Positions 11,401-49,100 of a stretch of 64,000 bases of DNA are shown one piece after another (the stretch's first letter is position 1; each line of letters opens with the position of its first letter). The translations under genes and the position numbers were made by a program. The notes under the pieces were generated by a model. It saw only the letters and a list, made by a program, of their open reading frames with translations. It ran no database searches and was not told the DNA's origin. The DNA is from Eledone cirrhosa (taxonomy: Eukaryota). The DNA is taken from the NCBI GenBank assembly GCA_964016885.1, contig OZ024740.1, positions 8,060,001-8,124,000 of the forward strand, written 5' to 3'.

Positions 11401-11729
11401 CTGACATACCAATCGTAACTGATATACCAATCGAAACTGACATACCAATCGAAACTGCCATACCAATCGAAACTGATATACCAATCAAAACTGATATGCC
11501 AATCGAAACTGATATATCAATCGAAACTGATATACCAATCAAAACTGACATACCAATAGAAAATGATATACCAATAGAAACTGACATACCAATCGAAACT
11601 GATATACCAATCGAAACTGATATAGCAATAGAAACTGATATACTAATCGAAAATGACATACCAATTGAAACTGATATACCAATCGAAACTGATATACCAA
11701 TAGATACTGACATACCAATCGAAACTGAT
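8445..11729 (-). repeat. 18-bp satellite, inverted block, part A
   Basis: Monomer reads AT[C/A]GAAACTGA[C/T]ATACCA, the reverse complement of block 1; the switch is at tttcgAT/ATagaaac (8444-8445). Confidence 0.98.
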
Positions 11730-12785
11730 ATCATCATCATCATCATCATCAACGTTTAACGTCCGTGTTCCACGCTTGCATGGGTTTGGACGGGGGTAGT
11801 CCCATTTGAGGCAAGAGTGATTGTCTTGCTCGCATAGGACTGTCTGGCAGGTTTTCTACAGTTGGATGCCCTTCCTAACACCAATCACATTTACAGTGTG
11901 GGTCTGGGAGGTTTTTACCGTGTTGCCTACACGGCCACATTACAGCGTGGACTGTGTGTTTTATTGTCGTGACACATACACGATCTCATTTGTTTCGGCC
12001 TCGATGGCGCGGCACCAACATAACTTTACATAGAACGGGGTGGTGTGGATGGGGTGGGGGTGGTGGTGGTGGGACGGGGTGTATTGTGTTAGAGATGCCT
12101 ACTGGCTGGAGTAGGTTTTACTATATATTTAGTTAAGGCGGGTCTTCTCTGTTACTGAGTACCGCCAAAGGTCTCGGTCCAGTGACATTGTCTTGGAGAG
12201 GTGTAAGTGTGTGATGTCGGAGTTTATCAGCTCGTCCCAGGTTTTTCTAGGTCTGCCTATTCCGTGAGTACTGTCTATCTTTATTGCCCTGCACTTTGTT
12301 ATACAGCTATCGACTTTCATGCGCATCACGTGTCCATACCAACGTAGCCTTCTCTCGAGTAAACAACATCTGATCCCTCTTATCTCTAATTTTTTCCTTA
12401 GTTCGTTTATGCTTTGCCGTTCACGTATATTACTGTTACACATCCAGCGGAGCATGCAAGCTTCGTTCCTCTCTAGTCTGCGTATATCCTCTGCACACAA
12501 TGCCCAGGTCTCACTGCCATGCAGCATTGCTGTTCGTATGCAGGCATCGTACAACCTGCCTTTCATTTTTAGGGAGAACCCTTTAGCAACTAATAGTGGT
12601 ATAAGCTCTCTGAACTTTTTCCAACCAGTTCTGACTCTAGCTACAGTACTTTCAGAGCACCCTCCCCCACTGCTGATTTTATCGCCCAGGTAACGGAAGC
12701 TGTCCACTATTTCTATAGAACCCTCTGCGCAATTGAAAGAGCTAGTATTTTGTGGACACTTGCTGCTACTTATTGCACCAGAACA
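11730..12785 (-). mobile_element. 5'-truncated RTE-like LINE, short copy (~1.05 kb) with (GAT)7 tail
   Basis: Reverse complement of 45118-46151 at ~98% identity by eye, plus one 28-bp indel; (ATC)7 at 11730-11750 on +; satellite on both sides. Confidence 0.95.
12129..12785 (-). pseudogene. C-terminal fragment of the LINE ORF (post-RT region), no native start
   Basis: CSGAISS...IEIVDSFRYLG...MLHGSETW...RLRWYGHVMRM...GRPRKTW...KTRLN*; motifs typical of RTE-clade C-termini. The N-terminal residues of the called ORF (12786-12827) are satellite. Confidence 0.9.
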
Positions 12786-15700
12786 TACCAATCGAAACTG
12801 ACATACCAATAGAAACTGATATAGCAATAGGAACTAATATACAAATCAAAACTGATATACCAATCGAAACTGACTTACCAATAGGAACTTATATACCAAT
12901 AGAAACTGACATACAAATTGAAACTGATATACCAATCGAAACTGATATACCAATAGAAACTGACATACAAATCGAGGACTAACATACCAATCGAAACTGA
13001 CATACCAATCGAAACTGACATACCAATAGGAACTGATATACCAATAGAAACTGACATACAAAGTGAAACTGATATACCAATCGAAACTGATATACCAATC
13101 GAAACTGACATACCAATCGAAACTGACATACCAATAGTAACTGACATACCAATCGAAACTGATATACCAATAAAAACTGACATACCTATCGAAACTGACA
13201 TACAAATTGAAACTGATATAACAATAGAAACTGACATACCAATAGTAACTAACATACCAATCGAAACTGATATACCAATAAAAACTGACATACCAATAGA
13301 AACTGACATACAAATTGAAACTGATATACCAATCGAAGCTGATATACCAATAGAAACTGACATACAAATAGAAACTGTTATACTAATCGAAACTGACATA
13401 CCAATCGAAACTGATATACCAATCGAAACTGACATTCCGATCGAAACTGACATACCAATCGAAACTGATATACCTATCGAAATTGATATAGCTATAGAAA
13501 CTGACATACCAATAACAAGTGATATACTAATTGAAATTGACATACCAATCAAGACTGATATACCAATAGAAACTGACATTCGAGGACTAACATACCAATC
13601 GAATCTGACATATCAATATAAACTGATATACTAACTGAAACCGACATACCAATAGAAACTAATATACCTAACGAAATTGACATACCAATCGAAACTGACA
13701 TACCAATCGAAACTGATATACCAATGGAAACTGACATACCAATCGAAACTGATATACCAATCAAAACTGATGTACCAATCGAAACTGATATATCAATAGA
13801 AACTGACATACCAATCGAAACTGACATACCAATAGAAAGTGATATACTAATCGAAACTAACATACCAATAGAAACTGACATACTAATCGAAACTGATATA
13901 CCAATCGAAATTGACATACCAATCGAAACTGACATACCAATCGAAACTGACATACCAAGAGAAACTGATATACTAATAGAAACTGATATACCAATCAAGA
14001 CTGATATATCAATCAAAACTAACATAACAATCGAAAATGACATTCTAATCGAAACTGATATACCAGTCGAAACTGATATACCAATAGAAACTAACATACC
14101 AATAGAAACTGACATACTATTCTAAACTGATATACCAATCGAAACTGACATACCAATCGAAACTGATATACCAATCGAGACTGACATACCAATCGAAACT
14201 GACATACCAATAGAAACTGACATACCAATCGAAACTGACATACCAATAGACACTGATATACTAATCGAAACTGACATACCAGTGGAAACTGACATACTAA
14301 TCGAAACTGATATATCAATCAAAACTGACATACCATTCAAAACTGAAATACCATCGAAACTGATATACCAATCGAAACTGATATACCAATAGAAACTGAC
14401 ATACCTATAGAAACTGATGTACTAATCGAAACTGACATACCAATCGAAACTGATATACCAATAGAAACTGACATACCAATCGAAACTGACATACCAATCG
14501 AAAGTGATATAAGCTATCGAAACTGATATAGAAATAGAAACTGATATACCTATCGAAACTGATATACTAATTGAAATTGACATACCAATCGAAACTGATA
14601 TACCAATAGAAACTGACACACAATTCGAGGACTAACATACCAATCGAAACTGACATACCAATAGAAACTGATATACTAATTGAAACTGACATACCAATCG
14701 AAACTGACATACCAATCGAAACTGACATACCAATAGAAACTGATATACCTATCGAAATTGACATACCAATCGAAACTGACATACCAATCGAAACTGATAT
14801 ACCAATCAAAACTGATATACCAATCGAAACTGATATATCAATCGAAACTGATATACCAATCAAAACTGACATACCAATAGAAAATGATATACCAATAGAA
14901 ACTGACATACCAATCGAAACTGACATACTAATCGAAACTGATATATCAATCGAAACTGATATACCAATAGAAACAGACATTCGAGGACTAACATACCAAT
15001 TGAACCTGACATACCAATATCAACTGATATACTAATTGAAACTGACATACCAATAGAAACTAATATACCTAACGAAATTGACATACTAATCGAAACTCAT
15101 GTACCAATCGAAACTGACATACCAATCGAAACTGATATAACAATCAAAACTGATGTACCAATCGAAACTGATATACCAATAGAAACTGATATACTAATAG
15201 AAACTGATATACCAATCAAGACTGATATATCAATCAAAACTAACATAACAATCGAAAATGACATTCTAATCGAAACTGACATACCAATAGACACTGATAT
15301 ACTAATCGAAACTGACATACCAGCAGAAACTGACATAGTAATCGAAACTGATATATCAATCGAAACTGATATACCAATAGAAACTGACATACCAATCGAA
15401 ACTGATATACCAATAGAAACTGATATACTAATTGAAATTGACATACCAATCGAAACTGATATACCAATCGAAACTGACATACCAATCGAAACTGATATAA
15501 GCTATCGAAACTGATATAGCAATAGAAACTGATATACCTATCGAAACTGATATACTAATTGAAATTGACATAACAATCGAAACTGATATACCAATAGAAA
15601 CTGACTCACAATTCGAGGACTAACATACCAATCGAAACTGACATACCAATAGAAATTGATATACTAATTGAAACTGACATACCAATAGGAACTGATATAC

Positions 15701-18700
15701 TAATTGAAACTGACATACCAATAGAAACTATTATACCTATCGAAATTGACATACCAATCGAAACTGACATACCAATCGAAACTGATATACCAATCAAAAC
15801 TGACATACCAATCGGAACTGATATACCAATCGAAACTAACATACCAATCGAAACTGACATACCAATAGAAACTGATATACCAATCGAAACTGACATACCA
15901 ATCGAAACTGCCATACCAATCGAAACTGCCATACCAATCGAAACTGATATACCAATCAAAACTGATATACCAATCGAAACTGATATATCAATCGAAACTG
16001 ATATACCAATCGAAACTGACATACTAACAGAAAATGATATACCAATAGAAACTGACATACCAATCGAAACTGATATACCTATCGAAATTGATATAGCTAT
16101 AGAAACTGACATACCAATAACAAGTGATATACTAATTGAAATTGACATACCAATCAAGACTGATATACCAATAGAAACTGACATTCGAGGACTAACATAC
16201 CAATCGAATCTGACATATCAATATAAACTGATATACTAACTGAAACCGACATACCAATAGAAACTAATATACCTAACGAAATTGACATACCAATCGAAAC
16301 TGACATACCAATCGAAACTGATATACCAATGGAAACTGACATACCAATCGAAACTGATATACCAATCAAAACTGATGTACCAATCGAAACTGATATATCA
16401 ATAGAAACTGACATACCAATCGAAACTGACATACCAATAGAAAGTGATATACTAATCGAAACTAACATACCAATAGAAACTGACATACTAATCGAAACTG
16501 ATATACCAATCGAAATTGACATACCAATCGAAACTGACATACCAATCGAAACTGACATACCAAGAGAAACTGATATACTAATAGAAACTGATATACCAAT
16601 CAAGACTGATATATCAATCAAAACTAACATAACAATCGAAAATGACATTCTAATCGAAACTGATATACCAGTCGAAACTGATATACCAATAGAAACTAAC
16701 ATACCAATAGAAACTGACATACTATTCTAAACTGATATACCAATCGAAACTGACATACCAATCGAAACTGATATACCAATCGAGACTGACATACCAATCG
16801 AAACTGACATACCAATAGAAACTGACATACCAATCGAAACTGACATACCAATAGACACTGATATACTAATCGAAACTGACATACCAGTGGAAACTGACAT
16901 ACTAATCGAAACTGATATATCAATCAAAACTGACATACCATTCAAAACTGAAATACCATCGAAACTGATATACCAATCGAAACTGATATACCAATAGAAA
17001 CTGACATACCTATAGAAACTGATGTACTAATCGAAACTGACATACCAATCGAAACTGATATACCAATAGAAACTGACATACCAATCGAAACTGACATACC
17101 AATCGAAAGTGATATAAGCTATCGAAACTGATATAGAAATAGAAACTGATATACCTATCGAAACTGATATACTAATTGAAATTGACATACCAATCGAAAC
17201 TGATATACCAATAGAAACTGACACACAATTCGAGGACTAACATACCAATCGAAACTGACATACCAATAGAAACTGATATACTAATTGAAACTGACATACC
17301 AATCGAAACTGACATACCAATCGAAACTGACATACCAATAGAAACTGATATACCTATCGAAATTGACATACCAATCGAAACTGACATACCAATCGAAACT
17401 GATATACCAATCAAAACTGATATACCAATCGAAACTGATATATCAATCGAAACTGATATACCAATCAAAACTGACATACCAATAGAAAATGATATACCAA
17501 TAGAAACTGACATACCAATCGAAACTGACATACTAATCGAAACTGATATATCAATCGAAACTGATATACCAATAGAAACTGACATTCGAGGACTAACATA
17601 CCAATTGAACCTGACATACCAATATCAACTGATATACTAATTGAAACTGACATACCAATAGAAACTAATATACCTAACGAAATTGACATACTAATCGAAA
17701 CTCATGTACCAATCGAAACTGACATACCAATCGAAACTGATATAACAATCAAAACTGATGTACCAATCGAAACTGATATACCAATAGAAACTGATATACT
17801 AATAGAAACTGATATACCAATCAAGACTGATATATCAATCAAAACTAACATAACAATCGAAAATGACATTCTAATCGAAACTGACATACCAATAGACACT
17901 GATATACTAATCGAAACTGACATACCAGTAGAAACTGACATAGTAATCGAAACTGATATATCAATCGAAACTGATATACCAATAGAAACTGACATACCAA
18001 TCGAAACTGATATACCAATAGAAACTGATATACTAATTGAAATTGACATACCAATCGAAACTGATATACCAATCGAAACTGACATACCAATCGAAACTGA
18101 TATAAGCTATCGAAACTGATATAGCAATAGAAACTGATATACCTATCGAAACTGATATACTAATTGAAATTGACATAACAATCGAAACTGATATACCAAT
18201 AGAAACTGACTCACAATTCGAGGACTAACATACCAATCGAAACTGACATACCAATAGAAATTGATATACTAATTGAAACTGACATACCAATAGGAACTGA
18301 TATACTAATTGAAACTGACATACCAATAGAAACTATTATACCTATCGAAATTGACATACCAATCGAAACTGACATACCAATCGAAACTGATATACCAATC
18401 AAAACTGACATACCAATCGGAACTGATATACCAATCGAAACTAACATACCAATCGAAACTGACATACCAATAGAAACTGATATACCAATCGAAACTGACA
18501 TACCAATCGAAACTGCCATACCAATCGAAACTGCCATACCAATCGAAACTGATATACCAATCAAAACTGATATACCAATCGAAACTGATATATCAATCGA
18601 AACTGATATACCAATCGAAACTGACATACTAACAGAAAATGATATACCAATAGAAACTGACATACCAATCGAAACTGATATATCAATCGAAACTGATATA

Positions 18701-19100
18701 CCAATCGAAACTGATATACCAATAGATACTGACATACCAATCGAAACTGATATACCAATCGAAACTGACATACCAATAGAAACTGATATAGCAATAGGAA
18801 CTGATATACAAATCGAAACTGATATACCAATCGAAACTGACATACCAATAGGAACTGATATACCAATAGAAACTGACATACAAATTGAAACTGATATACC
18901 AATCGAAACTGATATACCAATAGAAATTGACATATAATAGAAACTAATATACTAATCGAAACTGACATACCAGTCGAAACTGATATACCAATCGAAACTG
19001 ACATACCAATCGAAACTGATATACCAATCGAAAATGACATACCAATCGAAACTGACATACCAATAGTAACTGACATACCAATCGAAACTGATATACCAAT
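12786..19100 (-). repeat. 18-bp satellite, inverted block, part B
   Basis: Reverse-orientation monomers up to ...gatataccaat (19100), followed by forward atgttagtttc. Confidence 0.98.
13445..18682 (-). repeat. Near-perfect tandem duplication, period 2605 bp (two copies)
   Basis: ORF pairs offset by 2605 (13549/16154, 13724/16329, 14567/17172, 15097/17702, 15606/18211); only about two mismatches noticed by eye. Confidence 0.92.
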
Positions 19101-22100
19101 ATGTTAGTTTCTATTGGTATATCAGTTTGGATTGTTATATCAGTTTCGACTGGTATGTCAGTTTTGATTAGTATATCAGTTTCTATTGGTATGTCAGTTT
19201 CTATTGGTATATCAGTTTCGATTGGTATATCAGTTTCTATTGGTACGTTAGTTTTGATTAGTATATCAGTTTCTATTGGTATGTCAGTTTCGTTTGGTAT
19301 GTCAGTTTCGATTGGTATATCAGTTTCTATTGGTATGTCTGTTTCTATTGGTATATCAATTTCAATTTGTATGTCAGTTTCAATTGGTATATCAGTTTCG
19401 ATTTGTATATCAGTTCCTATTGGTATATCAGCTTCGATTTGTATATCAGTTCCTATTGCTATATCAGTTTCTATTGGTATGTCAGTTTCGATTGGTATAT
19501 TAGTTTCGATTGGTATGTCAGTTTCGATGAGTATATCAGTTTCTATTGGTTTGTCAATTTCTATTTGTATATCAGCTTCGATTGGTATATCAGTTTCGAT
19601 TAGTATGTCAGTTTCTATTGGTATGTCAGTTTTGATTAGTATATCAGTTTCTATTGGTATGTCAGTTTAGATTGGTATGTCAGTTGCGATTGGTATATCA
19701 GTTTCGATTATTATATCAGTTACTATTGGTATGTCAGTTTGGATTGGTATGTCATTTTCAATTGGTATATCAGTTTCTATTGGTATGTCAGTTTCGATTG
19801 GTATATCAGTTTCGATTGGTATGTCAGTTTGGATTGGTATGTCAGTTTCGATTAGTATGTCAGTTTCGATTGGTATGTCAGTTTCGATTGGTATATCAGT
19901 TTCTATTGGTATGTCAGTTTCTATTGGTACATCTGTTTCGATTGGTATATCAGTTTCTATTGGTATGTTAGTTTCGATTAGTATATCAGTTTCTATTGGT
20001 ATGTCAGTTTCGATTGGTATGTCAGTTTCGATTGGTATATCAGTTCCGATTGGTATGTCAGTTTGGATTGGTATGTAAATTCTGATAGGTATATCAGTTT
20101 CGATAAGTATGTCAGTTTCGATTAGTATGTCTGTTTCTATTGATATATCACTTTCGATTGGTATATCAGTTTTGATTGGTATATTAGTTTGGACTGGTAT
20201 ATCAGTTTCGATTGGTATGTCAGTTGCGATTGGTATGTCAGTTTCTATTGGTATATCAGTTTCGAATGGTATGTCAGTTTCGATTGGTACGTCAGTTTCG
20301 ATTAGTATATCAGTTTCTATAGGTATGTCAGTTTCGATTGTTATGTCAGTTTCTATTGGTATATCAGTTTCGATTAGTATGTCAGTTTCTACTGGTATGT
20401 CAGTTTCGATTAGTATATCAGTTTCTATTGGTATGTCAGTTTCGATTGGTATATCAGTTTCGATTGGTATGTCAATTTCGATTGGTATGTCAGTTTCGAT
20501 TGGTATATCAATTTCAATTAGTATATCAGTTTCTATTGGTATATCAGTTTCGATTGGTATGTCAGTTTCGATTAGTATATCAGTTTCTATAGGTATGTCA
20601 GTTTCGATTGTTATGTTAGTTTCTATTGGTATATCAGTTTCAATTGGTATGTCAGTTTCGATTGGTATGTCAGTTTCTATTGGTATGTCAGTTTCGATTG
20701 GTATATCAGTTTCGATTAGATTATCAGTTTCTATTGGTATATGAGTTCCTACTATTGATATATCAGTTTCGATTGGTATATCAGTTTTGATTGGTATATC
20801 AGTTTTGAATGGTATGTCAGTCTTGATTGGTATGTCAATTTCGATTGGTATATCAGTTTAGATTAGTATGTCAGTTTCTATTGGTATATCAGTTTCGACT
20901 GGTATGTTAGTTTCGATTGGTATGTCAGTTTCTATTGGTATATAAGTTTCTATTGGTATGTCAGTTTTGATTAGTATATCAGCTTCGATTGGTATGTCAG
21001 TTTCGATTGGTATGTCAGTTTCGATTGGTATGTCAGTTTCTATTGGTATATCAGTTTCGATTGGTATATCAGTTTCGATTTGTATATCAGATCCTATTGC
21101 TATATCAGTTTCTATTGGTATGTAAGTTTGGATTGGTATATCAGTTTCGATTTGTATATCAGATCCTATTGCTATATCAGTTTCTATTGGTATGTCAGTT
21201 TCTATTAGTATATCAGCTTCGATTGGTATATCAGTTTCGATTAGTATGTCAGTATCTATTGGTATGTCAGTTTCGCTTGGTATGTCATTTTCGATTGGTA
21301 TATCAGTTTCTATTGGTATGACAGTTTTGATTGGTATATCAGTTTCGATTGGTATATCAGTTTAGATTGGTATGTCAGTTGTGTTTGGTATGTCAGTTTC
21401 GATTGGTATATCAGTTTCGATTGGTATGTTAGTTTCTATTGTTATATCAGTTTTTATTGGTATGTCAGTTTCAATAGGTATGTCAGTTTTTATTGGTATA
21501 TCATTTTTAATTGGTATGTCAGTTTGTATTGGTATGTCAGTTTCGATTATTATATCAGTTACTATTGGTATATCAGTTTCGATTGGTATGTCAGTTTCGA
21601 TTGGTATATCAGTTTCGATTAGTATGTTAGTTTCTATTGGTATATCAGTTTCGATTGGTATATCAGTTTCGACTGGTATGTCAGTTTCGATTAGTATATC
21701 AGTTTCGATTGGTATATCAGTTTCGATTAGTATGTTAGTTTCTATTGGTATGTTAGTTTCGATTAGTATATCAGTTCCTATTGGTATGTCAGTTTCTATT
21801 CATATATCAGTTTCGATTGGTATATCAGTTTCGACTGGTATATCAGTTTCGATCGGTATGTCAGTTTATGTTGGTATGTCAGTTTAGATCGGTATGTCAG
21901 TTGCGATTGGTATGTCAGTTTCGATTGGTATGTCAGTTTCGATTGGTATGTCAGTTTCAATTGGTGTGTCAATTTCAATAGGTATGTAAGTTGCTATTTG
22001 TATATCAGTTTCGATTGGTATGTCAGTTTCGATTAGCATATCAGTTTCTATTGGTATGTCAGTTTCAATTGGTATGTCAGTTTCTATTGGTATGTCAGTT

Positions 22101-23475
22101 TCGATTATTATATCAGTTAATATTGGTATGTCAGTTTCGATTGGTATGTCATTTTCGATTGGTATCTGAGTTTCTATTGGTATGACAGTTTCGATTGGTA
22201 TATCAGTTTGGATTGGTATCTCAGTTTGGATTGGTATGTCAGTTTCGATTAGTATGTTAGTTTCTATTAGAATATCAGTTTCGATTGGTATGTCAGTTTC
22301 GATTGGTATATCAGTTTCGACTGGTATATCAGTTTCGATTAGTATAATCAGTTTCTATTGGTATGTCAGTTTCTATTGGTATATCAGTTTCGATTGGTAT
22401 ATCAGTTTCGATTAGTATGTCAGTTTCTATTGGTATGTTAGTTTCGATGAGTATATAAGTTTCTATTGGTATGTCAGTTTTGATCGGTATGTCATTTTCT
22501 ATTGATATATCAGTTTTGATTGGTATATGAGTTTCGATTGGTATGACAATTTCTATTGGTATGTCAGTTTCTATTGGTATATCAGTTTCGATTGGTATAT
22601 CAGTTTCGATTAGTATGTCAGTTTCTATTAGTATGTTAGTTTCGATTAGTATATCAGTTTCTATTTGTATGTCAGTTTCGATTGGTATGTCAGTTTCTAT
22701 TCATATATCAGTTTCGATTGGTATATCAGTTTCTATTGTTATATCAGTTTCGACTGGTATATCAGTTTCGATTAGTATAATCAGTTTCTATTGGTATGTC
22801 AGTTTCTATTGGTATATCATTTTCGATTAGTATGTCAGTTTCTATTGGTATGTTAGTTTTGATTAGTATATCAGTTTCTATTGGTATGTTAGTTTTGATT
22901 GGTATATCAGTTTCTATTGGTATATCAGTTTCGATTGGTATGTCAGTTTCGATTGGTATATCAGTTTCGATTGGTATGTCAGTGTTTATTGGTATGTTAG
23001 TTTCGATTAGTATATCACTTTCTATTGGTATGTCAGTTTCGATTGATATATCAGTTTCGATTGGTATATCAGTTTTGATTGGTATATCAGTTTCGATTGG
23101 TATGTCAGTTTCTATTGGTATATCAGTTTCTATTGGTATGTCAGTTTTGATTGGTATATCAGTTTTGAATGGTATGTCAGTTTCGATAGGTATGTCAGTT
23201 TCGATTGGTATGTCAGTTTTGATTGGTATATCAGTTCCGATTGGTATGTCAGTTTCGATTGGTACGTCAATTTCGATAGGTATATTAGTTTCTATTGGTA
23301 TGTTAGTCTCAATTAGTATATCAGTTTCTATTGGTATGTCATTTTCGATTGGTATGTTAGTCCTCGAATTGTATGTCATTTTCTATTGGTATTTCAGTTT
23401 TGATTAGTATATCAGTTTCGATTGGTATATCAGTTTAGATTGGTATGTCAGTTTCTATTGGTATATCAGTTTCTA

Positions 23476-34900: not shown

Positions 34901-37900
34901 GTATGTCAGTTTTGATTGGTATATCAGTTTCGATTGGTATGTCAGTTTCGATTGGTATGTCAGTTTCAATTGGTATATCAGTTCCGATTGGTATGTCAGT
35001 TTCGATTGGTATGTCAGTTTCGATTGGTATATCAGTTTCGATTGGTATGTCAGTGTTTATTGGTATGTTAGTTTCGATTAGTATATCACTTTCTATTGGT
35101 ATGTCAGTTTCGATTGCTATGTCTATTTCTATTGATATATCAGTTTCGATTGGTATATCAGTTTTGATTGGTATATCAGTTTCGATTGGTATGTCAGTTT
35201 CTATTGGTATATCAGTTTCTATTGGTATGTCAGTTTTGATTGGTATATCAGTTTTGAATGGTATGTCAGTTTTGATTGGTATATCAGTTCCGATTGGTAT
35301 GTCAGTTTCGATTGGTACGTCAATTTCGATAGGTATATTAGTTTCTATTGGTATGTTAGTTTCAATTAATATATCAGTTTCTATTGGTATGTCAGTTTCA
35401 ATTAGTATATCAGTTTCTATTGGTATGTCATTTTCGATTGGTATGTTAGTCCTCGAATTGTATGTCAGTTTCTATTGGTATTTCAGTTTTGATTAGTATA
35501 TCAGTTTCGATTGGTATATCAGTTTCGATTGGTATGTCAGTTTCTATTGGTATATCAGTTTCTACTGGTATGTCAGTTTTGATTGGTATATCAGTTTCGA
35601 TTGGTATGTCAGTTTCGATTGGTATGTCAGTTTCGATTATTATATCAGTTACCATTGGTATGTCAGTTTCGATTGGTATGTCATTTTCGATTGGTATATC
35701 AGTTTCTATTGGTATGACAGTTTCGATTAGTATATCACTTTCTATTGGTATGTCAGTTTCTATTGATATATCAGTTTCGATTGGTATATCAGTTTCGATT
35801 TGTATGTCAGTTTCGACTGGTATGTCAGTTTCGATTAGTATATCACTTTCTATTGCTATATCAGTTTCGATTGGTATATCAGTTTCGATTAGTATGTCAG
35901 TTTCTATTGGTATGTTAGTTTCGATTAGTATATCAGTTTCTATTTGTATGTCAGTTTCGATTGGTATGTCAGTTTCTATTGATATATCAGTTTCGATTGG
36001 AATATCAGTTTCAATTGGTATATTAGTTTCGATTGGTATGTCAATTTCTATTGGTATATCAGTTTCTATTGGTATGTCAGTTTTGATTGGTATATCAGTT
36101 TCGATTAGTATGTCAGTTTCGATTGGTATATCAATTTTGATTGGTATGTGAGTTTGGATTTGTATGTCAGTTTCGATTGGTATGTCAGTTTTGATTGGTA
36201 TATTAGTTTCGATTGGTATGTCAGTTTCTATTGGTATGTCAGTTTCGATTATTATATCAGTTACTATTGGTATGTCAGTTTCGATTGGTATGTCATTTTC
36301 GATTGGTATATCAGTTTCGATTGGTATGTCTGTTTAGATTGGTATATGAGTTTCAACTGGTATGTCAGTTTCGATTAGTATATCACTTTCTATTGGTATG
36401 TCAGTTTCTATTGATATATCAGTTTCCATTGGTATATCAGCTTTGATTGGTATATCAGTTTCTGTTGGTACGTTAGTTTCGATTAGTATATCACTTTCTA
36501 TTGGTATGTCAGTCTTGATAGGTATGTCAGTTTCTATAGATATATCAGTTTCGATTGGTATATCAGTTTTGATTTGTATATCAGTTTCGATTGGTATGTC
36601 AGTTTCGATTGGTACATCAGTTTCGATTGGTATGTCAGTTTCGATTGGTATGTCAATTTCGATAGGTATATTAGTTTCTATTGATATGTCAGATTCAATT
36701 AGTATATCAGTTTCTATTTGTATGTCAGTTTCGATTGGTATGTTAGTCCTCGAATTGTATGTCAGTTTCTAATGGTATATCAGTTTCGATTGGTATGTCA
36801 GTTTCTATTGTTATGTCAGTTTTGATTAGTATATCAGTTTCAATTGGTATGTCAGTTTCTATTGGTATGTCTGTTTCGATTATTATATCAGTTAATATTT
36901 GTATGTCAGTTTCGATTGGTATGTCATTTTCGATTGGTATATCAGTTTCCATTGGTATGACAGTTTCGATTGGTATATCAGTTTGGATTGGTATCTCAGT
37001 TTGGATTGGTATGTCAGTTTGACTTGGTATGTCAGTTTCGATTGGTATGTCAGTTTCAATTGGTATGTCAATTTCGATTGGTATATCAGTTTCGATTAGT
37101 ATGTTAGTTTCTATTGGAATATCAGTTTCGATTGGTATGTCAGTTTCGATTGGTATATCAGTTTCAACTGGTATATCAGTTTCGATTAGTATAATCAGTT
37201 TCTATTGGTATGTCAGTTTCTATTGGTATATCAGTTTCGATTGGTATATCAGTTTCGATTAGTATGTCAGTTTCTATTGGTATGTTAGTTTCGATGAGTA
37301 TATATGTTTCTATTGGTATGTCAGTTTTGATCGGTATGTCATTTTCTATTGATATATCAGTTTTGATTGGTATACGAGTTTCGATTGGTATGTCAATTTC
37401 TATTGGTATGTCAGTTTCTATTGGTATATCAGTTTCGATTGGTATATCAGTTTCGATTAGTATGTCAGTTTCTATTAGTATGTTAGTTTCGATTAGTATA
37501 TCAGTTTCTATTTGTATGTCAGTTTCGATTGGTATGTCAGTTTCTATTCATATATCAGTTTCGATTGGTATATCAGTTTCTATTGTTATATCAGTTTCGA
37601 TTGGTATGTCAGTTTCGATTGGTATATCAGTTTCGACTGATATATCAGTTTCGATTAGTATAATCAGTTTCTATTGGTATGTCAGTTTCTATTGGTATAT
37701 CAGTTTCGATTGGTATATCAGTTTCGATTAGTATGTCAGTTTCTATTGGTATGTTAGTTTCGATTAGTATATCAGTTTCTATTGGTATGTCAGTTTTGAT
37801 TGGTATATCAGTTTCGATTGGTATGTGAGTTTCGATTGGTATGTCAGTTTCAATTGGTATATCAGTTCCGATTGGTATGTCAGTTTTGATTGGTATATCA

Positions 37901-40900
37901 GTTTCTATTGGTATATTAGTTTTGATTGGTATATCAGTTTCGATTGTTATATCAGTTTCGATTGGTATATCAGTTTCGACTGGTATGTCAGTTTCAATTA
38001 ATATATCAGTTTCTATTGGTATGTCAGTTTCTATTGGTATGTCAGTTTCGATTGGTATATCAGTTTCGATTAGTATGTCAGTTTCTATTAGTATGTTAGT
38101 TTCGATTAATATATCAGTTTCTATTAGTATGTCAGTTTCGATTAGTATGTCAGTTTCTATTCATATATCAGTTTCAATTGGTATGTCAATTTCGATTGGT
38201 ATGTTAGTCCTCGAATTGTATGTCAGTTTCTAATGGTATATCAGTTTCGATTGGTATGTCAGTTTCGATTGGTATATCAGTTTCGATTGGTATGTCAGTT
38301 TCGATTCGTATGTCAGTTTCAATTGGTATGTCAATTTCGATTGGTATATCAGTTTCGATTAGTATGTTAGTTTCTATTGGAATATCAGTATCGATTGGTA
38401 TATCAGTTTCGATTGGTATGTCAGTTTCGATTGGTATATCAGTTTCGACTGGTATATCAGTTTCGATTAGTATAATCAGTTTCTATTGGTATGTCAGTTT
38501 TTATTGGTATATCAGTTTCGATTGGTATATCAGTTTCGATTAGTATGTCAGTTTCTATTGGTATGTTAATTTCGATGAGTATATAAGTTTCTATTGGGAT
38601 GTCAGTTTTGATCGGTATGTCTGTTTCTATTGATATATCAGTTTTGATTGGTATATCAGTTTCGATTGGTATATCAGTTTCGATTGGTATGTCACTTTCT
38701 ATTGGTATGTCAGTTTCTATTGGTATATCAGTTTCGATTGGTATATCAGTTTCGATTAGTATGTCAGTTTCTATTAGTATGTTAGTTTCGATTAGTATAT
38801 CAGTTTCTATTTGTATGTCAGTTTCGATTGGTATGTCAGTTTCTATTCATATATCAGTTTCTATTGGTATATCAGTTTCTATTGTTATATCAGTTTCGAT
38901 TAGTATGTCAGTTTCGATTGGTATATCAGTTTCGACAGGTATATCAGTTTCGATTAGTATAATCAGTTTCTATTGGTATGTCAGTTTCTATTGGTATATA
39001 AGTTTTGATTGGTATATCAGTTTCGATTAGTATGTCAGTTTCTATTGGTATGTTAGTTTCGATTAGTATATCAGTTTCTATTGGTATGTCAGCTTTGATT
39101 GGTATGTCAGTTTCGATTGGTATGTCAGTTTCGATTGGTATGTCAGTTTCTATTGGTATATCAGTTTCTACTGGTATGTCAGTTTTGATTGGTATATCAG
39201 TTTCGATTGGTATGTCAGTTTCGATTAGTATATCACTTTCTATTGGTATGTTAGTTTCTATTGATATGTCAGTTTCAATTAGTATATCAGTTTCTATTGG
39301 TATGTCAGTTTCGATTGGTATGTTAGTCCTCGAATTGTATGTCAGTTTCTAATGGTATATCAGTTTCGATTGGTATGTAAGTTGCTATTGGTATATCAGT
39401 TTCGATTGGTATGTCAGTTTCTATTGGTATGTCAGTTTTTATTGGTATATCAGCTTTGATTGGTATATCAGTTTCGATTAGTATGTCAGTTTCTATTGTT
39501 ATGTCAGTTTTGATTAGTATATCAGTTTCTATTGGTATGTCAGTTTAGATTGGTATGTCAGATTCGATAGGTATGTCAGTTTTTATTGGTATATCAGTTT
39601 CGATTGGTATGTCAGTTTCTATTGGTATCTCAGTTTCGATTATTATATCAGTTAATATTGGTATGTCAGTTTCGATTGGTATGTCATTTTCGATTGGTAT
39701 ATGAGTTTCTATTGGTATGAAAGTTTCGATTGGTATATCAGTTTGGATTGGTATCTCAGTTTGGATTGGTATGTCAGTTTGGCTTGGTATGTCAGTTTCG
39801 ATTCGTATGTCAGTTTCAATTGGTATGTCAATTTCGATTTGTATATCAGTTTCAAATAGTATGTTAGTTTCTATTGGAATATCAGTTTCGATTGGTATAT
39901 CAGTTTTGATTGGTATGTCAGTTTCGATTGGTATATCAGTTTCGACTGGTATATCAGTTTCGATTAGTATAATCAGTTTCTATTGGTATGTCAGTTTCTA
40001 TTGGTATATCAGTTTCGATTGGTATATCAGTTTCGATTAGTATGTCAGTTTCTATTGGTATATCAGTTTCGATTGGTATGTCACTTTCTATTGGCATGTC
40101 AGTTTCTATTGTTATATCAGTTTCGATTGGTATATCAGTGTGTATTGGTATGTTAGTTTCGATTAGTATATCACTTTCTATTGGTATGTCAGTTTCGATT
40201 GGTATGTCTATTTCTATTGATATATCAGTTTCGATTGGAATATCAGTTTTGATTGGTATATCAGTTTCGATTGGTATGTCAGTTTCTATTGGTATATCAG
40301 TTTCTATTGGTATGTCAGTTTTGATTGGTATATCAGTTTCTATTTGTATATCAGTTTCAATTGGTATATCAGTTTGGATTGTTATATCAGTTTCGATTGG
40401 TATATCAGTTTCGACTGGTATGTCAGTTTCGATTAGTATATCAGTTTCTATTGGTATGTCAGTTTTGATTGGTATATCAGTTTCGATTGGTATGTCAGTT
40501 TCGATTGGTATGTCAGTTTCAATTGGTATATCCGTTCCTATTGGTATGTCAGTTTCGATTGGTATGTCAGTTTCGATTGGTATATCAGTTTCGATTGGTA
40601 TGTCAGTGTGTATTGGAATGTTAGTTTCGATTAGTATATCACTTTCTATTGGTATGTCAGTTTCAATTGGTATGTCTATTTCTATTGATATATCAGTTTC
40701 GATTGGAATATCAGTTTTGATTGGTATATCAGTTTCGATTGGTATGTCAGTTTCTATTGGTATATCAGTTTCTATTGGTATGTCAGTTTTGATTGGTATA
40801 TCAGTTTTGAATGGTATGTCAGTTTCGATTGGTATGTCAGTTTTGATTGGTATATCAGTTCCGATTGGTATGTTAGTTTCAATTAATATATCAGTTTCTA

Positions 40901-43375
40901 TTCGTATGTCAGTTTCAATTAGTATATCAGTTTCGATTGGTATGTCAGTTTCCATTGGTATATCAGATTCAACTGGTATGTCAGTTTCGATTAGTATATC
41001 ACTTTCTATTGCTATATCAGTTTCGATTGGTATGTCAGTTTCGATTAGTATGTAAGTTTCTATTGGTATGTTAGTTTCGATTAGTATATCAGTTTCTATT
41101 GATATATCAGTTTCGATTGGAATATCAGTTTCGATTGGTATATTAGTTTCGATTGGTATGTCAGTTTCTATTGGTATATCAGTTTCTAATGGTATGTCAG
41201 TTTTGATTGGTATATCAGTTTCGATTAGTATGTCAGTTTCGATTGGTATATCAGTTTGGATTGGTTGTGAGTTTGGATTGGTATGTCAGTTTCGATTGGT
41301 ATATCAGTTTGGATTAGTATGTTAGTTTCTATTGGTATATCAGTTTCGATTGCTATATCAGTTTCGACTGGTATGTCAGTTTCGATTAGTATATCAGTTT
41401 CTATTGGTATGTCAGTTTCTATTGGTATATCAGTTTCGATTGGTATATCAGTTTCGATTAGTATGCTAGTTTCCATTGGTATGTTAGTTTCGATCAGTAT
41501 ATCAGTTTCTATTGGTATGTCAGTTTCGATTGGTATGTCAGTTTCTATTCATATAACAGTTTCGATTGGTATATCAGTTTCGATCTGTATATCAGTTTCG
41601 ATTGGTATGTCAGTTTCGATTGGTATATCAGTTTCGATTGGTATGTCAGTTTCTATTGGTATATCAGTTTCTATTGGTATGTCAGTTTCAATTAGTATAT
41701 CAGTTTCTATTGGTATGTCAGTTTCGACTGGTATGTTAGTCCTCGAATTGCATGTCAGTTTCTATTGGTATATCAGTTTCTATTGGTATGTAAGTTTCTA
41801 TTGGTATATCAGCTTTGATTGGTATATTAGTTTCAATTAGTATGTCAGTTTCTATTGTTATATCAGTTTTGATTAGTATATCAGTTTCTATTGGTATGTC
41901 AGTTTAGATTGGTATGTCAGTTTCCATTGGTATATCAGTTTCGACTGGTATATCAGTTTCGATTAGTATAATCAGTATCTATTGGTATGTCAGTTTCTAT
42001 TGGTATATCAGTTTCGATTGGTATGTTAGTTTTGATCGGTATGTCAGTTTCTATTGATATATCAGTTTTGATTGGTATATCAGTTTCGATTAGTATGTCA
42101 GTTTCTATTAGTATGTTAGTTTCGATTAGTATATCAGTTTCTATTCGTATGTCAGTTTCGATTGGTATGTCAGTTTCTATTCATATATCAGTTTCGATTG
42201 GTATATCAGTTTCTATTGTTATATCAGTCTCGATTAGTATGTCAGTTTCGATTGGTATATCAGTTTCGACTTGTATATCAGTTTCGATTAGTATAATCAG
42301 TTTCTATTGGTATGTCAGTTTCTATTGGTATATCAGCCTCGATTGGTATATCAGTTTCGATTAGTATGTCAGTTTCTATTGGTATGTTAGTTTCGATTAG
42401 TATATCAGTTTCTATTGGTATGTCAGTTTCGATCGGTATGTCAGTTTCTATTGATATATCAGTTTTGATTGGTATATCAGTTTCGATTGGTAAATCAGTT
42501 TCGATTGGTATGTCAATTTCTATTGGTATATCAGTTTCTATTGGTATGTCAATTTTGATTGGTATATCAGTTTCTATTGGTATATCAGTTTCGATTGGTA
42601 TATCAGTTTCGATTGTTATATCAGTTTCGATTGGTATATCAGTTTCGACTGGTATGTCAGTTTCGATTAGTATATCAGTTTCTATTGGTATGTCAGTTTC
42701 GATTGGTATATCAGTTCCGATTGGTATGTCAGTTTCGATTGGTATGTCAGTTTCAATTGGTATATCAGTTTCGATTGGTATGTCAATGTCTATTGGTATG
42801 TTAGTTTCGATTAGTATATCACTTTTTATTGGTATGTCAGTTTCGATTGGTATGTCTATTTCTATTGATATATCAGTTTCGATTGGTATATCAGTTTTGA
42901 TTTGTATATCAGTTTCGATTGGTATGTCAGTTTCTTTTGGTATATCAGTTTCTATTGGTATGTCAGTTTTGATTGGTATATCAGTTTTGACTGGTATATC
43001 AGTTCCGATTGGTATGTCAGTTTCGATTGGTACGTCAATTTCGAGAGGTATATTATTTTCTATTGGTATGTTAGTTTCAATTAATATATCAGTTTCTATT
43101 GGTATGCCAGTTTCAATTAGTATATCAGTTTCTATTGGTATGTCATTTTCGATTGGTATGTTAGTCCTCGAATTGTATGTCAGTTTTTATTGGTATTTCA
43201 GTTTTGATTAGTATATCAGTTTCGTTTGGTATATCAGTTTCGATTCGTATGTCAGTTTCTATTGGTATATCAGTTTCTACTGGTATGTCAGTTTTGATTG
43301 GTATATCAGTTTCGATTGGTATGTCAGTTTCGATTGGTATGTCAGTTTCGATTGGTATATCAGTTCCCGATTGGT

Positions 43376-43381
43376 ATGTTA
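43376..43381 (+). repeat. Left target-site duplication ATGTTA (right copy 46150-46155)
   Basis: ttggtATGTTA-gacgtg at the 5' junction and gatgATGTTA-atttcg at the 3' junction; empty paralogous sites with a single ATGTTA at 57734-57739 and 61139-61144. Confidence 0.8.
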
Positions 43382-45786
43382 GACGTGACAGAGTGTCTGT
43401 TGTAAACACTAAATCCCTCCCCCATGAAGAATGCACCTCCCAACATAGACTGATAATTAGCGACCTCATAGTCAGGTCGAGACGTACTCGACAGCAGAAG
43501 AGGACTATCCTCAGGAGAAAAATATGGAAGCTAAAGGACCCCACAGCCAAAAATAAATTTCAAAACATATTACTTGATGCTTTCGACAGTAAGGAAGAAC
43601 ACTTAGAGTCGGACAATATAGAGGGACAGTGGGAATTTCTGAAAGCAAACCTGCTGTTGGCCACAGACGAAGTCTGTGGCTGGAGCAGGCCTGTAGGCAG
43701 GAGGAGAGTAACATGGTGGTGGAACAGTAAGGTGGAGGAGTCAATTAAGGCCAAAAAGCAGGCTTGGAAAGTATGGCGGGATGGGGGAAGTAGAGTAGAC
43801 TATCAAGTGGCCAGGAGGGAAGCTAGGAGAGAAGTGTACTTAGCAAGAAGGGAAGCTGAGGAAAGAAAGTTCAAGCATGTCCTACAACGCGATGACCAAA
43901 AACGTGAGGTGTTCAGGATTGCTAGGCAATGCGTCAAGGAAAACCGTGATATTGTCGGGGAGAAGTGTGTACTTAACGATGATGGCATACTTGCCATCAC
44001 CGACACTGATAAGAAGGCAGCTTGGAAGTGTCACTATGAAAGGCTACTAAATGAGGAGAATAAATGGGAGAAAGACAGTCTCCCCCATGTCGACCCAATA
44101 GAGGGACCAGCAGTGTTAGTCGAGGGGAGTATAATAAGTAAGGCAATCAAGGACATGAAGACAGGTAAGGCGGCTGGGCCTTCGGAAATAGTTGCTGAGA
44201 TGCTGAAGGCATCTGGCACGGTGGGACACACCATGGTCACCCGCATAGTTAACCAAGTCGTACAGAATGGGGTTGTTCCGAAGGACTGGCATAGCAGCAT
44301 CATCGTTAACTGTTATAAGGGTAAAGGAGACGCCCTAGATAGGAGTAACTATAGAGGCATTAAATTAATCGACCAGGTCATGAAGGTCACAGAAAAAGTA
44401 ATAGCGCAACTAATCAGAGAGAGAATTGACCTAGATGAAATGCAGTTCGGGTTTGTGTCAGGCAAAAGTACCACAGACGCTCTTTTCATAGTACGACAAC
44501 TACAGGAGAAGTACCTAGCTAAAGGTAAACCCCTCTACTTAGCTTTTGTCGACTTGGAGAAAGCCTTCGACAGAGTCCCCCGCTCCATTATCTGGTGGGC
44601 TCTTAGAAAACTAGGCGTTGACGAATGGCTTGTGAGGGCTATACAAGCCATGTATAAAGAAACAGTCAGCAAGGTTAGAATTAACAACGAATATAGTGAA
44701 GAGTTTAGCGTAAAAGTTGGCGTCCATCAGGGCTCTGTTCTCAGCCCCCTACTATTTATTATTGCCCTTCAGGCTATAACAGAGGAGTTCAAGACAGGCT
44801 GCCCATGGGAACTCCTATACGCAGACGACCTGACACTCATAGCGGAATCAATGGCCGAGCTAGAGAAGAAATTCCAAACATGGAAGCACGGCCTAGAGTC
44901 AAAAGGACTTAAAATTAACCTGGCTAAGACCAAAGTTCTAGTTTGTAGGAAAGAAAACAAGGCGGCGGTCCCTTCTGTGAAATGGTCATGCTCGGTGTGT
45001 AGGAAAGGCGTAGGTAGAAACTCCATTTTGTGTCCTAAATGCAAAGTATGGGTGCATAAAAGATGTAGTGGGATCACAGGTAAGCTAACTAAGAACATAG
45101 ATTTTACATGTGGCCGGTGTTCTGGTGCAATAAGTAGCAGCAAGTGCCCACAAAATACTAGCTCTTTCAATTGCGCAGAGGGTTCTATAGAAATAGTGGA
45201 CAGCTTCCGTTACCTGGGCGATAAAATCAGCAGTGGGGGAGGGTGCTCTGAAAGTACTGTAGCTAGAGTCAGAACTGGTTGGAAAAAGTTCAGAGAGCTT
45301 ATACCACTATTAGCTGCTAAAGGGTTCTCCCTAAAAATGAAAGGCAGGTTGTACGATGCCTGCATACGAACAGCAATGTTGCATGGCAGTGAGACCTGGG
45401 CATTGTGTGCAGAGGATATACGCAGACTAGAGAGGAACGAAGCTTGCATGCTCCGCTGGATGTGTAACAGTAATATACGTGAACGGCAAAGCATAAACGA
45501 ACTAAGGAAAAAATTAGAGATAAGAGGGATCAGATGTTGTTTACTCGAGAGAAGGCTACGTTGGTATGGACACGTGATGCGCATGAAAGTCGATAGCTGT
45601 ATAACAAAGTGCAGGGCAATAAAGATAGACGGTAGCCACGGAATAGGCAGACCTAGAAAAACCTGGGACGAGCTGATAAACTCCGACCTCACACACTTAC
45701 ACCTCTCCAAGACAATGTCACTGGACCGAGACCTTTGGCGGTACTCAGTAACAGAGAAGACCCGCCTTGCCAGTAGGCATCTCTAA
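43378..45786 (+). CDS. N-terminally truncated LINE polyprotein (~800 aa): end of AP endonuclease, reverse transcriptase, PHD-type Zn finger, C-terminal domain
   Basis: Element-derived part of ORF 43177..45786, with no stop or frameshift; EECTSQHRLI resembles the final APE (SDH-equivalent) motif; YADD at 44818-44829. Confidence 0.92.
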   Translation, partial: VRRDRVSVVNTKSLPHEECTSQHRLIISDLIVRSRRTRQQKRTILRRKIWKLKDPTAKNKFQNILLDAFDSKEEHLESDNIEGQWEFLKANLLLATDEVCGWSRPVGRRRVTWWWNSKVEESIKAKKQAWKVWRDGGSRVDYQVARREARREVYLARREAEERKFKHVLQRDDQKREVFRIARQCVKENRDIVGEKCVLNDDGILAITDTDKKAAWKCHYERLLNEENKWEKDSLPHVDPIEGPAVLVEGSIISKAIKDMKTGKAAGPSEIVAEMLKASGTVGHTMVTRIVNQVVQNGVVPKDWHSSIIVNCYKGKGDALDRSNYRGIKLIDQVMKVTEKVIAQLIRERIDLDEMQFGFVSGKSTTDALFIVRQLQEKYLAKGKPLYLAFVDLEKAFDRVPRSIIWWALRKLGVDEWLVRAIQAMYKETVSKVRINNEYSEEFSVKVGVHQGSVLSPLLFIIALQAITEEFKTGCPWELLYADDLTLIAESMAELEKKFQTWKHGLESKGLKINLAKTKVLVCRKENKAAVPSVKWSCSVCRKGVGRNSILCPKCKVWVHKRCSGITGKLTKNIDFTCGRCSGAISSSKCPQNTSSFNCAEGSIEIVDSFRYLGDKISSGGGCSESTVARVRTGWKKFRELIPLLAAKGFSLKMKGRLYDACIRTAMLHGSETWALCAEDIRRLERNEACMLRWMCNSNIRERQSINELRKKLEIRGIRCCLLERRLRWYGHVMRMKVDSCITKCRAIKIDGSHGIGRPRKTWDELINSDLTHLHLSKTMSLDRDLWRYSVTEKTRLASRHL
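44989..45120 (+). other. C4HC3 PHD-like zinc-finger coding segment inside the LINE ORF
   Basis: CSVC-x10-CPKC-x4-H-x2-C-x14-CGRC, with Trp two residues before the His; lies between KTKVL and IEIVDSFRYLG. Confidence 0.8.
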
Positions 45787-46124
45787 CAAAATACACCCCG
45801 TCCCACCACCACCACCCCCACCCCATCCACACCACCCCGTCCTATGTAAAGTTATGTTGGTGCCGCGCCATCCGGGCCGAAACAAATGAGATCGTGTAGG
45901 TGTCACGACAAAAAAACACACAGTCCACGCTGTAATGTGGCCGTGTAGGCAACACGGTAAAAACCTCCCAGACCCACACTGTAAATGTGGTTGGTGTTAG
46001 GAAGGGCATCCAACTGTAGAAAACCTGCCAGACAGTCCTATGTGAGCAAGACAATCACTCTTGCCTCAAGTGGGACTACCCCCGTCCAAACCCATGCAAG
46101 CGTGGAACACGGACGTTAAACGTT
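45787..46124 (+). other. LINE 3' UTR with C-rich tract, degenerate ~49-bp direct repeat and terminal stem-loops
   Basis: C-rich 45796-45838; hairpins CCGTGT/ACACGG (45941-45957), GCAAGA/TCTTGC (46046-46064) and CGTCC..CCATG/CGTGG..GGACG (46083-46115). Confidence 0.75.
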
Positions 46125-46151
46125 GATGATGATGATGATGATGATGATGAT
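46125..46151 (+). repeat. (GAT)9 retrotransposon tail
   Basis: Directly visible; the other copy has (GAT)7. Confidence 0.97.
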
Positions 46152-49100
46152 GTTAATTTCGATTGGTATATCAGTTTCTATTGGTATGTCAGTTTCGATT
46201 GGTATGTCAGTTTCTATTGGTATATCAGTTTCGATTGATATATCAGTTTCGATTAGTATATCAGTTTCTATTGGTATGTCAGTTTGATTGTTATATCAGT
46301 TTCGATTCGTATATCAGTTCGTATTGCTATATCAGTTTCTACTGGTATGTCAGTTTCAATTGGTATGTAAGTTTCGATTGGTATATCAGTTTCAATTGGT
46401 ATGTCAGTTTCAATTAGTAGATTGGTTTCGATTGGTATGTCAATTTCAATTAGTATATCAGTTTCTATTGGTATATCAGTTTCGATTGGTATGTCAGTTT
46501 CGATTAGTATATCAGTTTCTATAGGTATGTCAGTTTCTATTGGTATATCAGTTTCGATTGGTATATCAGTTTCTATTGGTATGTCAGTTTCGATTGGTAT
46601 GTCAGTTTCTATTGGTATATCAGTTTCGATTGATACATCAGTTTCGATTAGTATGTCAGTTTCTATTGCTATGTTAGTTTCGATTAGTATATCAGTTTCT
46701 ATTGGTATGTCAGTTTCGATCGGTATGTCAGTCTCTATTGATATATCAGTTTTGATTGGTATATCAGTTTCGATTGGTATATCAGTTTCGATTGGTATGT
46801 CAGTTTCTATTGGTATATCAGTTTCTATTGGTATGTCAGTTTCGATTGGTATATCAGTTTCGATTGGTATGTCAGTTTCGATTGGTATGTCAGTTTCGAT
46901 TGGTATATCAGTTCCGATTGGTATGTCAGTTTTGATTGGTATATCAGTTTCTATTGGTATATCAGTTTCGATTGGTATATCAGTTTCGATTGTTATATCA
47001 GTTTCGATTGGTATATCAGTTTCGACTGGTATGTCAGTTTCGATTAGTATATCAGTTTCTATTGGTATGTCAGTTTCTATTGGTATATCAGTTTCGATTG
47101 GTATATCAGTTTCGATTAGTATGTCAGTTTCTATTAGTATGTTAGTTTCGATTAGTATATCAGTCTCTATTAGTATGTCAGTTTAGATTGGTATGTCAGT
47201 TCCTATTAGTATGTTAGTTTCGATTAGTATATCAGTTTCTATTAGTATGTCAGTTTCGATTGGTACATCAGTTTCGATTGGTATATCAGTTTCGATTGGT
47301 ATGTCACTTTCTATTGGTATATCAGTTTCTATTGGTATGTGACTTTTGATTGGTATATCAGTTTCGTTTGGTATGTCAGTTTCGACTGGTATGTCAGTTT
47401 CGATTGGTATATCAGTTCCGATTGGTATATCAGTTTCTATTGGTATATCAGTTTCGATTGATATATCAGTTTCGATTAGTATATCAGTTTCTATTGGTAT
47501 GTCAGTTTGGATTGGTATGTCAGTTTGGATTGGTATGTCAGTTTCGATTGGTATGTCACTTTCGATTGGTATATCAGTTTCGATTAGTATGTTAGTTTCT
47601 ATTGGAATATCAGTTTCGATTGGTATATCAGTTTCGATTGGTATATCAGTTTCGATTAGTATGTCAGTTTCTATTAGTATGTTAGTTTCGATTAGTATAT
47701 CAGTCTCTATTAGTATGTCAGTTTAGATTGGTATGTTAGTTTCTACTGGTATGTCAGTTTGGATTAGTATGTCAGTTTCGATTGGTATGTCAGTTTCGAT
47801 TAGTATGTCAGTTTCTATTGGTATATCAGTTTCTATTTGTATGTCAGTTTTGATTGGTATATCAGTTTCGATTGGTATGTCAGTTTCGATTGGTATATCA
47901 GTTTCGATGGTATGTCAATTTCGATTGGTATATCAGTTTCGATTAGTATGTCAGTTTCTATTGGTATATCAGTTTCTATTGGTATATCAGTTTCGATTGA
48001 TATATCAGTTTCGATTAGTAGGTCAGTTTCTACTGGTATGTCAGTTTGGATTGGTATGTCAGTTTGGATTGGTATGTCAGTTTCGATTGGTATGTCAATT
48101 TCGATTGGTATATCAGTTTCGATTAGTATGTTAGTTTCTATTGGAATATCAGTTTCGATTGATATATCAGTTTCGATTCGTATGTCAGTCTCTATTGGTA
48201 TAACAGTTTCGACTGGTATATCAGTTTCGATTAGTATAATCAGTTTCTATTGGTATGTCAGTTTCTATTGATATATCAGTTTTGATTGGTATATCAGTTC
48301 CGATTGGTATATCAGTTTCGATTGGTAAGTCAGTTTCTATTGGTATATCAGTTTCTATTGGTATGTCAGTTTTGATTGCTATGTCAGTATCGATTGGTAT
48401 GTCAGTTTTGATTGGTATGTCAGTTTCTATAGGTATGTCAGTTTCTATTGGTATATCAGTTTCGATTAGTATATCAGTTTCTACTGCTATGTCAGTTTCG
48501 ATTAGTATATCAGTTTCTATTGGTATGTCAGTTTCGATTGGTATATCAGTTTCGATTCGTATATCAGTTCCAATTGCTATATCAGTTTCGATTGGTATAT
48601 CAGTTTCAATTGGTATGTCAGTTTCAATTAGTATATTTGTTTCGATTGGTATGTCAATTTCAATTAGTATATCAGTTTCTATTGGTATATCAGTTTCGAT
48701 TGGTATGTCAGTTTCGATTAGTATGTCAGTTTCTATTGGTATATCAGTTTCTATTGGTATGTCAGTTTTGATTGGTATATCAGTTTCGATTGGTATGTCA
48801 GTTTCGATTGGTATATCAGTTTCGATGGTATGTCAATTTCGATTGGTATATCAGTTTCGATTAGTATGTCAGTTTCTATTGGTATATCAGTTTCTATTGG
48901 TATATCAGTTTTGATTGGTATATCAGTTTCGATTAGTATGTTAGTTTCTATTGGAATATCAGTTTCGATTGGTATATCAGTTTCGATTGGTATGTCAGTT
49001 ACTATTGGTATATCAGTTTCGACTGGTATATCAGTTTCGATTAGTATAATCAGTTTCTATTGGTATGTCAGTATCTATTGATATATCAGTTTTGATTGGT

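Follow-up and report, generated by a model that had tools for sequence, protein, structure and literature searches.

An RTE-like LINE of Eledone cirrhosa inserts at one position of an 18-bp satellite, probably through a general TA/AT target site

LINEs integrate by target-primed reverse transcription. Elements of the TRAS/SART and R1/R2 types sit in a tandem repeat at a constant position and in a constant orientation, and most of their copies lie in that target repeat; RTE-type LINEs are usually regarded as unspecific. The way in which their endonuclease and microsatellite tail choose a site has been deduced from genomic logos, and one study calls for assays (PMC13295347). A Tn-TA signature with a spacing that matches the one considered below is described for Bov-B and plant RTEs in the accessible parts of the same study and of a second one (PMC6007223, PMC13295347), and the latter paper gives RTE target duplications of 7 to 15 bp, in ordinary DNA (PMC6007223). 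Among other non-LTR elements, Waldo (ACAY), Mino (AC), Kibi (TC) and Dong (TAA) are listed, in the part of the source at hand, as targeting microsatellites, with the endonuclease believed to be responsible, and the example given there for a TA microsatellite, Micron, is a DNA transposon and not a LINE (PMC3812793). The octopus elements RTE-2_OV and an RTE of O. bimaculoides are described, in the excerpted account, as having a single ORF of ~1100 aa with endonuclease and reverse transcriptase (RT) domains, a 3' microsatellite and recent activity, RTE-2_OV having in addition a C2H2 finger and a microsatellite that fills most of its 3' UTR; this account includes no analysis of target sites (PMC9115989). 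Neither the target preference described here nor RTE insertion at a constant phase of a satellite of this kind was reported in the literature searched, and a TA preference may be recorded in Repbase or in supplements.

The window (the whole stretch of 64,000 nucleotides that we analysed, C1:8060001-8124000 in a genome of 3.0 Gb) contains only two runs that are not satellite, and these are two copies of one LINE (Table 1). Matches to a satellite dimer pattern numbered 18,051 genome-wide and 435 in the window, which when scaled corresponds to ~2.5 Mb, in agreement with one array at approximately C1 7.23-9.59 Mb and a satellite share of ~0.08% of the genome; this picture of a single array is the one given by the dimer matches listed (first 100 places), and small arrays elsewhere are possible. 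With 17,924 dimer matches in one orientation and 127 in the other, 99.3% of the array runs in one chromosomal direction. The exact 2605-bp duplication of the inverted block is in tandem, and most tiles of this block have their best match inside it. More broadly, C1 4.4-17 Mb (L158-L167, L248-L287) is a mosaic of many satellites with periods of 12-77 bp, and the LINE-free stretches of this region coincide with those other satellites.

Table 1. Coordinates of the satellite blocks, LINE copies and empty sites in the window
Feature	Position	Strand	Remarks
18-bp satellite ATTGGTATRTCAGTTTCK, forward block	3..8445	+	TRF; per-position frequencies
Same 18-bp satellite, inverted block	8447..19100	-	contains the short LINE copy and the exact 2605-bp internal duplication
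Short LINE copy, 5'-truncated (ORF end, 3' UTR, tail)	11730..12785	-	
Short copy, tail (GAT)7; final AT overlaps monomer A7-T8	11730..11750	-	
Short copy, 5' junction: AT duplication, no longer than 2 bp; next TGT matches element	12785..12786	-	empty paralog near 18750
Empty-site paralog of short insertion, within inverted block	18641..18870	-	
18-bp satellite, forward block	19106..64000	+	belongs to ~2.4-Mb array, C1 7.23-9.59 Mb
Long insertion, target duplication ATGTTA, 5' copy; last A common to element	43376..43381	+	
Long LINE copy, 5'-truncated (end of endonuclease region, RT, PHD-like finger, 3' UTR, tail)	43381..46151	+	
Long copy, open frame, 5'-truncated	43381..45786	+	Pfam RVT_1 E=1.8e-32, PHD E=1.4e-05
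Long copy, 3' UTR	45787..46124	+	last 28 bases + tail start: 12,512 genome occurrences
Long copy, tail (GAT)9	46125..46151	+	
Long insertion, target duplication ATGTTA, 3' copy; first AT common to tail	46150..46155	+	
Uninserted target, empty-site paralog of long insertion	57647..57796	+	

The two copies in the window have different 5' ends, their alignment of 1035 columns contains 16 substitutions and one gap, and comparison with the empty-site paralogs (near 57727 for the long insertion and near 18750 for the short one) showed different target duplications, ATGTTA (5-6 bp) and AT (0-2 bp), respectively. They are therefore separate events, as a first-pass annotation of the window had maintained. 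Full-length copies in the array are open over one long frame, of 1030 aa in L120 and 1113 aa in L130, each with an Exo_endo_phos domain (APE-type endonuclease), RVT_1 and a PHD-like finger, and no second frame of >300 aa was found upstream of this long ORF in either copy. The element ends in a 338-bp UTR followed by a (GAT)n tail. Judged by its predicted architecture, with a single APE endonuclease and RT ORF, a short 3' UTR and a microsatellite tail, the element is RTE-like, and its one ORF and its tail are features that it would share with the Tn-TA LINEs of the RTE clade (Bov-B, plant RTE-1 and the Sauria and Au SINEs) as far as the available parts of their descriptions go. The architecture is common (304 relatives at E<=1e-100), and the only relatives in the PDB were distant L1/R2 ones. 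Compared by published description only, and in part, the element resembles RTE-2_OV and the O. bimaculoides RTE in ORF size, the presence of endonuclease and RT, the 3' microsatellite and recent activity, but RTE-2_OV differs in having a C2H2 finger, where this element has a PHD-like one, and in its microsatellite-filled 3' UTR. The PHD-like zinc finger lies 3' of the RT in the single ORF (window 45000-45130; L120, L130) and recurs in many homologs. In many copies (L049, L054, L199, L201, L219, L244, L289, L305) part of the 3' UTR is duplicated in tandem, with a recurring breakpoint ~203 bp from the end. The LINE is a young, genome-wide family.

Both tails in the window join the monomer at one place, between ATTGGT and ATRTCAGTTTCK, such that the last AT of the tail is A7-T8 of the monomer, and both copies are co-oriented with the ATTGGTATRTCAG strand of the satellite. 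The first-pass annotation had called attention to this shared position and polarity, and we found that it extends well beyond the window. An exact 28-mer from the 3' end of the element occurs 12,512 times in the genome and 40 times within the array span, and inspection of all 40 showed that the 39 with a satellite 3' flank all share one monomer position and strand. The remaining copy, L120, has a foreign 3' flank; this full-length copy with an intact frame (C1 7.90 Mb) has satellite on its 5' side, whereas its tail is followed by a CA-rich repeat of unrelated sequence. Removal of six duplicates left 33 independent sense events in this exact-match set, ~70 bp to 4.4 kb in length, and all 33 occupied the same one of 36 possible positions, which is not chance. 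The 5' junctions were phased as well, with 32 of 38 retaining satellite to T6 or further, and the target duplications in the 38 array events ranged from 0 to 11 bp (median ~4) and started at A7 (both read by eye). ATAT and ATGT monomers were hit about equally (15 and 17 times, respectively).

A search on the reverse strand returned three array matches, representing two events, and one non-satellite match on C2. Reverse insertions, which are rare, fall on the AT pair that the sense ones also use, and polarity for the exact-match family, at 33:2, is strong but not absolute. When all GAT-tailed elements were considered, there were 65 sense-phase and 10 antisense matches, which are raw counts without deduplication from sense and antisense patterns of different strictness; all 10 antisense matches fell at A7-T8 even though the pattern permitted all 18 phases. 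In a sense search open to any phase, all 25 distinct tails among the matches listed (100 of 215) were in phase. Other GAT-tailed elements, with at least three different 3' ends, also enter the same satellite site (L061, L062, L095, L102, L116, L121, L123, L156). The short copy of the window (12785) and an unrelated reverse insertion (L112/L114) have truncation points that lie a few bases apart, which may be chance. GAT-tailed elements often occur as pairs joined tail to tail (L009, L033, L036, L041, L058, L137), probably because every insertion creates an AT-rich site next to its own tail.

The family as a whole is strand balanced (6217 and 6295 copies), and 99.7% of it lies elsewhere: the array holds 40 of 12,512 copies (0.32%), an enrichment of 3.4-4.1-fold (p<1e-8), without spread over phases, so that neither of the two outcomes named in the first-pass annotation as refuting its view was observed. 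At junctions outside the array, in a set composed of the best DNA matches and the first places on C1 and so not strictly random, the first four target bases were ATAT in 40 of 59 cases, and about half (31 of 59) ran into TA-rich tracts; of 63 sites anchored by their duplications, 52 had T at position -1. Since TA-rich tracts made up 3.7% of a 100-kb sample, insertion rates come to ~60/Mb in TA-run-like DNA, 14-17/Mb in the satellite and ~2/Mb in other DNA, so that the per-base rate in TA-rich runs is ~4 times that in the satellite. Like Waldo, Mino, Kibi and Dong, the element has a simple-repeat preference, here a loose one for TA-rich DNA. That the TA runs are by-products of insertion is unlikely because the array junctions have no added TA runs. 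An apparent second satellite target on C2 (L322-L325, 252.06 Mb, in a 65/135-bp satellite) proved to be one event in four array-amplified copies.

We considered whether the LINE, or a sublineage of it, is specialised for the satellite in the manner of TRAS/SART or R1/R2. Its fixed site within the repeat unit (33 of 33) is like theirs, and the single phase, the strong polarity, the 3.4-4.1-fold enrichment and the lack of insertions in neighbouring satellites would all fit; unlike theirs, its copies are almost entirely outside the repeat, and TA-rich runs take insertions at a higher rate. Nor does a dedicated lineage emerge from the 3' 600 bp: in a tree of this segment for 33 satellite copies plus 70 others (of 114 eligible), the satellite copies were scattered among the others (28 changes, against a shuffled mean of 27.9), and three sets of identical sequences each include both satellite and other copies. 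Together with the other 3' ends at the same site and an enrichment smaller than the 8-fold overrepresentation of TTT-N7-TA in the array, these results largely refute specialisation, which we regard as very improbable, and the label of satellite-targeting retrotransposon given in the first pass has to be dropped. The element is not a new satellite-specific parasite. Because of its small share in the array, the higher rate in TA tracts, the interleaved tree and the other 3' ends, the LINE very likely has a general preference, with the satellite as a secondary target, and follows a general signal rather than a satellite-specific one. Multiplication of a few insertions by satellite turnover could mimic a common phase, and duplicates do exist (L121 in three copies, L097/098, L123/124, L125/126, L085/086 and L112/114, with L143/147 sharing a 5' junction), but the 33 events left after deduplication, of widely different length, also vary in 5' end, in flank and in their place in the tree, making this explanation extremely improbable; a duplication artefact is ruled out by the distinct 5' truncation points.

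As regards the strand, the monomer carries TTT at -11 to -9 from A7, along with T at -1, and in 23 kb the used strand has 1140 occurrences of TTT-N7-TA and the opposite strand none. Perfect GAT matches are frequent in the satellite (per 23 kb, 796 on one strand and 605 on the other) and never used, as had been remarked for the two window copies and as holds across the array; tail complementarity alone therefore does not choose the site. A local weight matrix built without the T tract (-3 to +4 or -6 to +6; 63 non-satellite sites) fails on polarity and on ATGT use. Evidence on the T tract outside the array came from 117 of 200 junctions, 53 having no 5' end in the DNA retrieved and 30, nested or internally duplicated, having been discarded by eye. 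At 89 non-satellite sites, TTT and AAA at -13 to -8 numbered 9 and 4, respectively (p=0.27), like control windows, and a post hoc TTT peak at -12 to -10 (7 vs 0 in 33 non-alternating sites) is one base off the satellite register. Of 38 monomers upstream of array insertions, 3 had a broken TTT, close to the ~8% expected by chance and hence no depletion (a comparison of low power), and the long copy of the window is among the three. Neighbouring 24-mer and 15-mer satellites, which have TA sites and no TTT-N7-TA, held zero exact-match insertions in ~0.2-0.3 Mb where 3-4 were expected (p 0.015-0.06), these controls having been picked after the gaps were seen and being partly more homogeneous and perhaps younger. 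Zero insertions were likewise counted in a 77-mer array that does have some TTT-N7-TA sites. Adjacent gaps totalling 8.7 Mb held zero insertions against 36 expected, a post hoc figure not used as a test. In our estimate it is close to a toss-up whether the TTT at -11 to -9 (Tn-TA), carried by one strand only, accounts for the strand bias.

The principal alternative is that the phase comes from the TA/AT site, with polarity due to replication-fork direction, satellite transcription or R-loops, DNA shape, or loss of one orientation. It would accord with the 9-to-4 result outside the array and with the one-way array, in which strand and chromosome direction are confounded, the inverted block supplying one informative insertion only, which may be older or younger than the inversion. 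Nevertheless, the bias is 6.5-16-fold, and the replication bias of L1 is smaller than this; the family is balanced between strands genome-wide, and the sole insertion in the inverted block follows the satellite strand. We consider this alternative unlikely, if much less so than specialisation.

The reading that we prefer, and consider probable, is that an RTE-like LINE enters one monomer position via a general TA/AT site, without seeking the satellite, with polarity perhaps from the T tract. There is one position per 18-bp monomer probably because the endonuclease nicks TA/AT steps and each monomer has one such site. The bottom strand would be nicked near 5'-AYAT/ACC-3', the exact bond being ambiguous within the 2-base AT overlap, and the first-pass deduction of a nick at 5'-AYAT/ACCAA-3' appears to be right within that ambiguity. 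The freed AT end could then pair with the AU of the (GAU)n RNA tail and prime reverse transcription, and a second nick would follow 0-11 bases downstream. Reverse insertions would represent the same reaction started on the other strand of the AT pair, the upstream TTT on one strand perhaps setting the orientation. As in Tn-TA elements, to the extent that the available sections describe them, the duplication begins at the A after T, and T3 lies ~10 bases upstream in the satellite target; unlike in those elements, duplications here have a median of only ~4 bp, about half of the copies adjoin TA-rich runs, the ORF includes a PHD-like finger, and non-satellite sites do not clearly show the T tract. 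A duplication of 7-15 bp is a typical RTE trait and not a definition of the clade, and the element behaves like an RTE with a Tn-TA-type preference, shifted to TA-rich DNA and short duplications. Possibly, though we would not call it probable, a family of GAT-tailed RTE-like LINEs has turned into a lineage that seeks TA microsatellites and reads a signal split into a T tract, one helical turn and TA.

More than 30 independent insertions in one repeated 18-mer constitute a base-exact record of site, strand and duplication length. The 18-mer is a defined substrate and intact full-length ORFs are present, so that a direct test is possible. The results also suggest a reason why some satellite arrays gather LINEs while adjacent ones do not. 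If the split-signal reading is true, the satellite would be a natural saturation screen, offering the signal every 18 bp on one strand, and the sole colonised array in a satellite-rich chromosome end; the Tn-TA signature would be extended to a mollusc, and the sequence of a satellite would decide which arrays take up LINEs.
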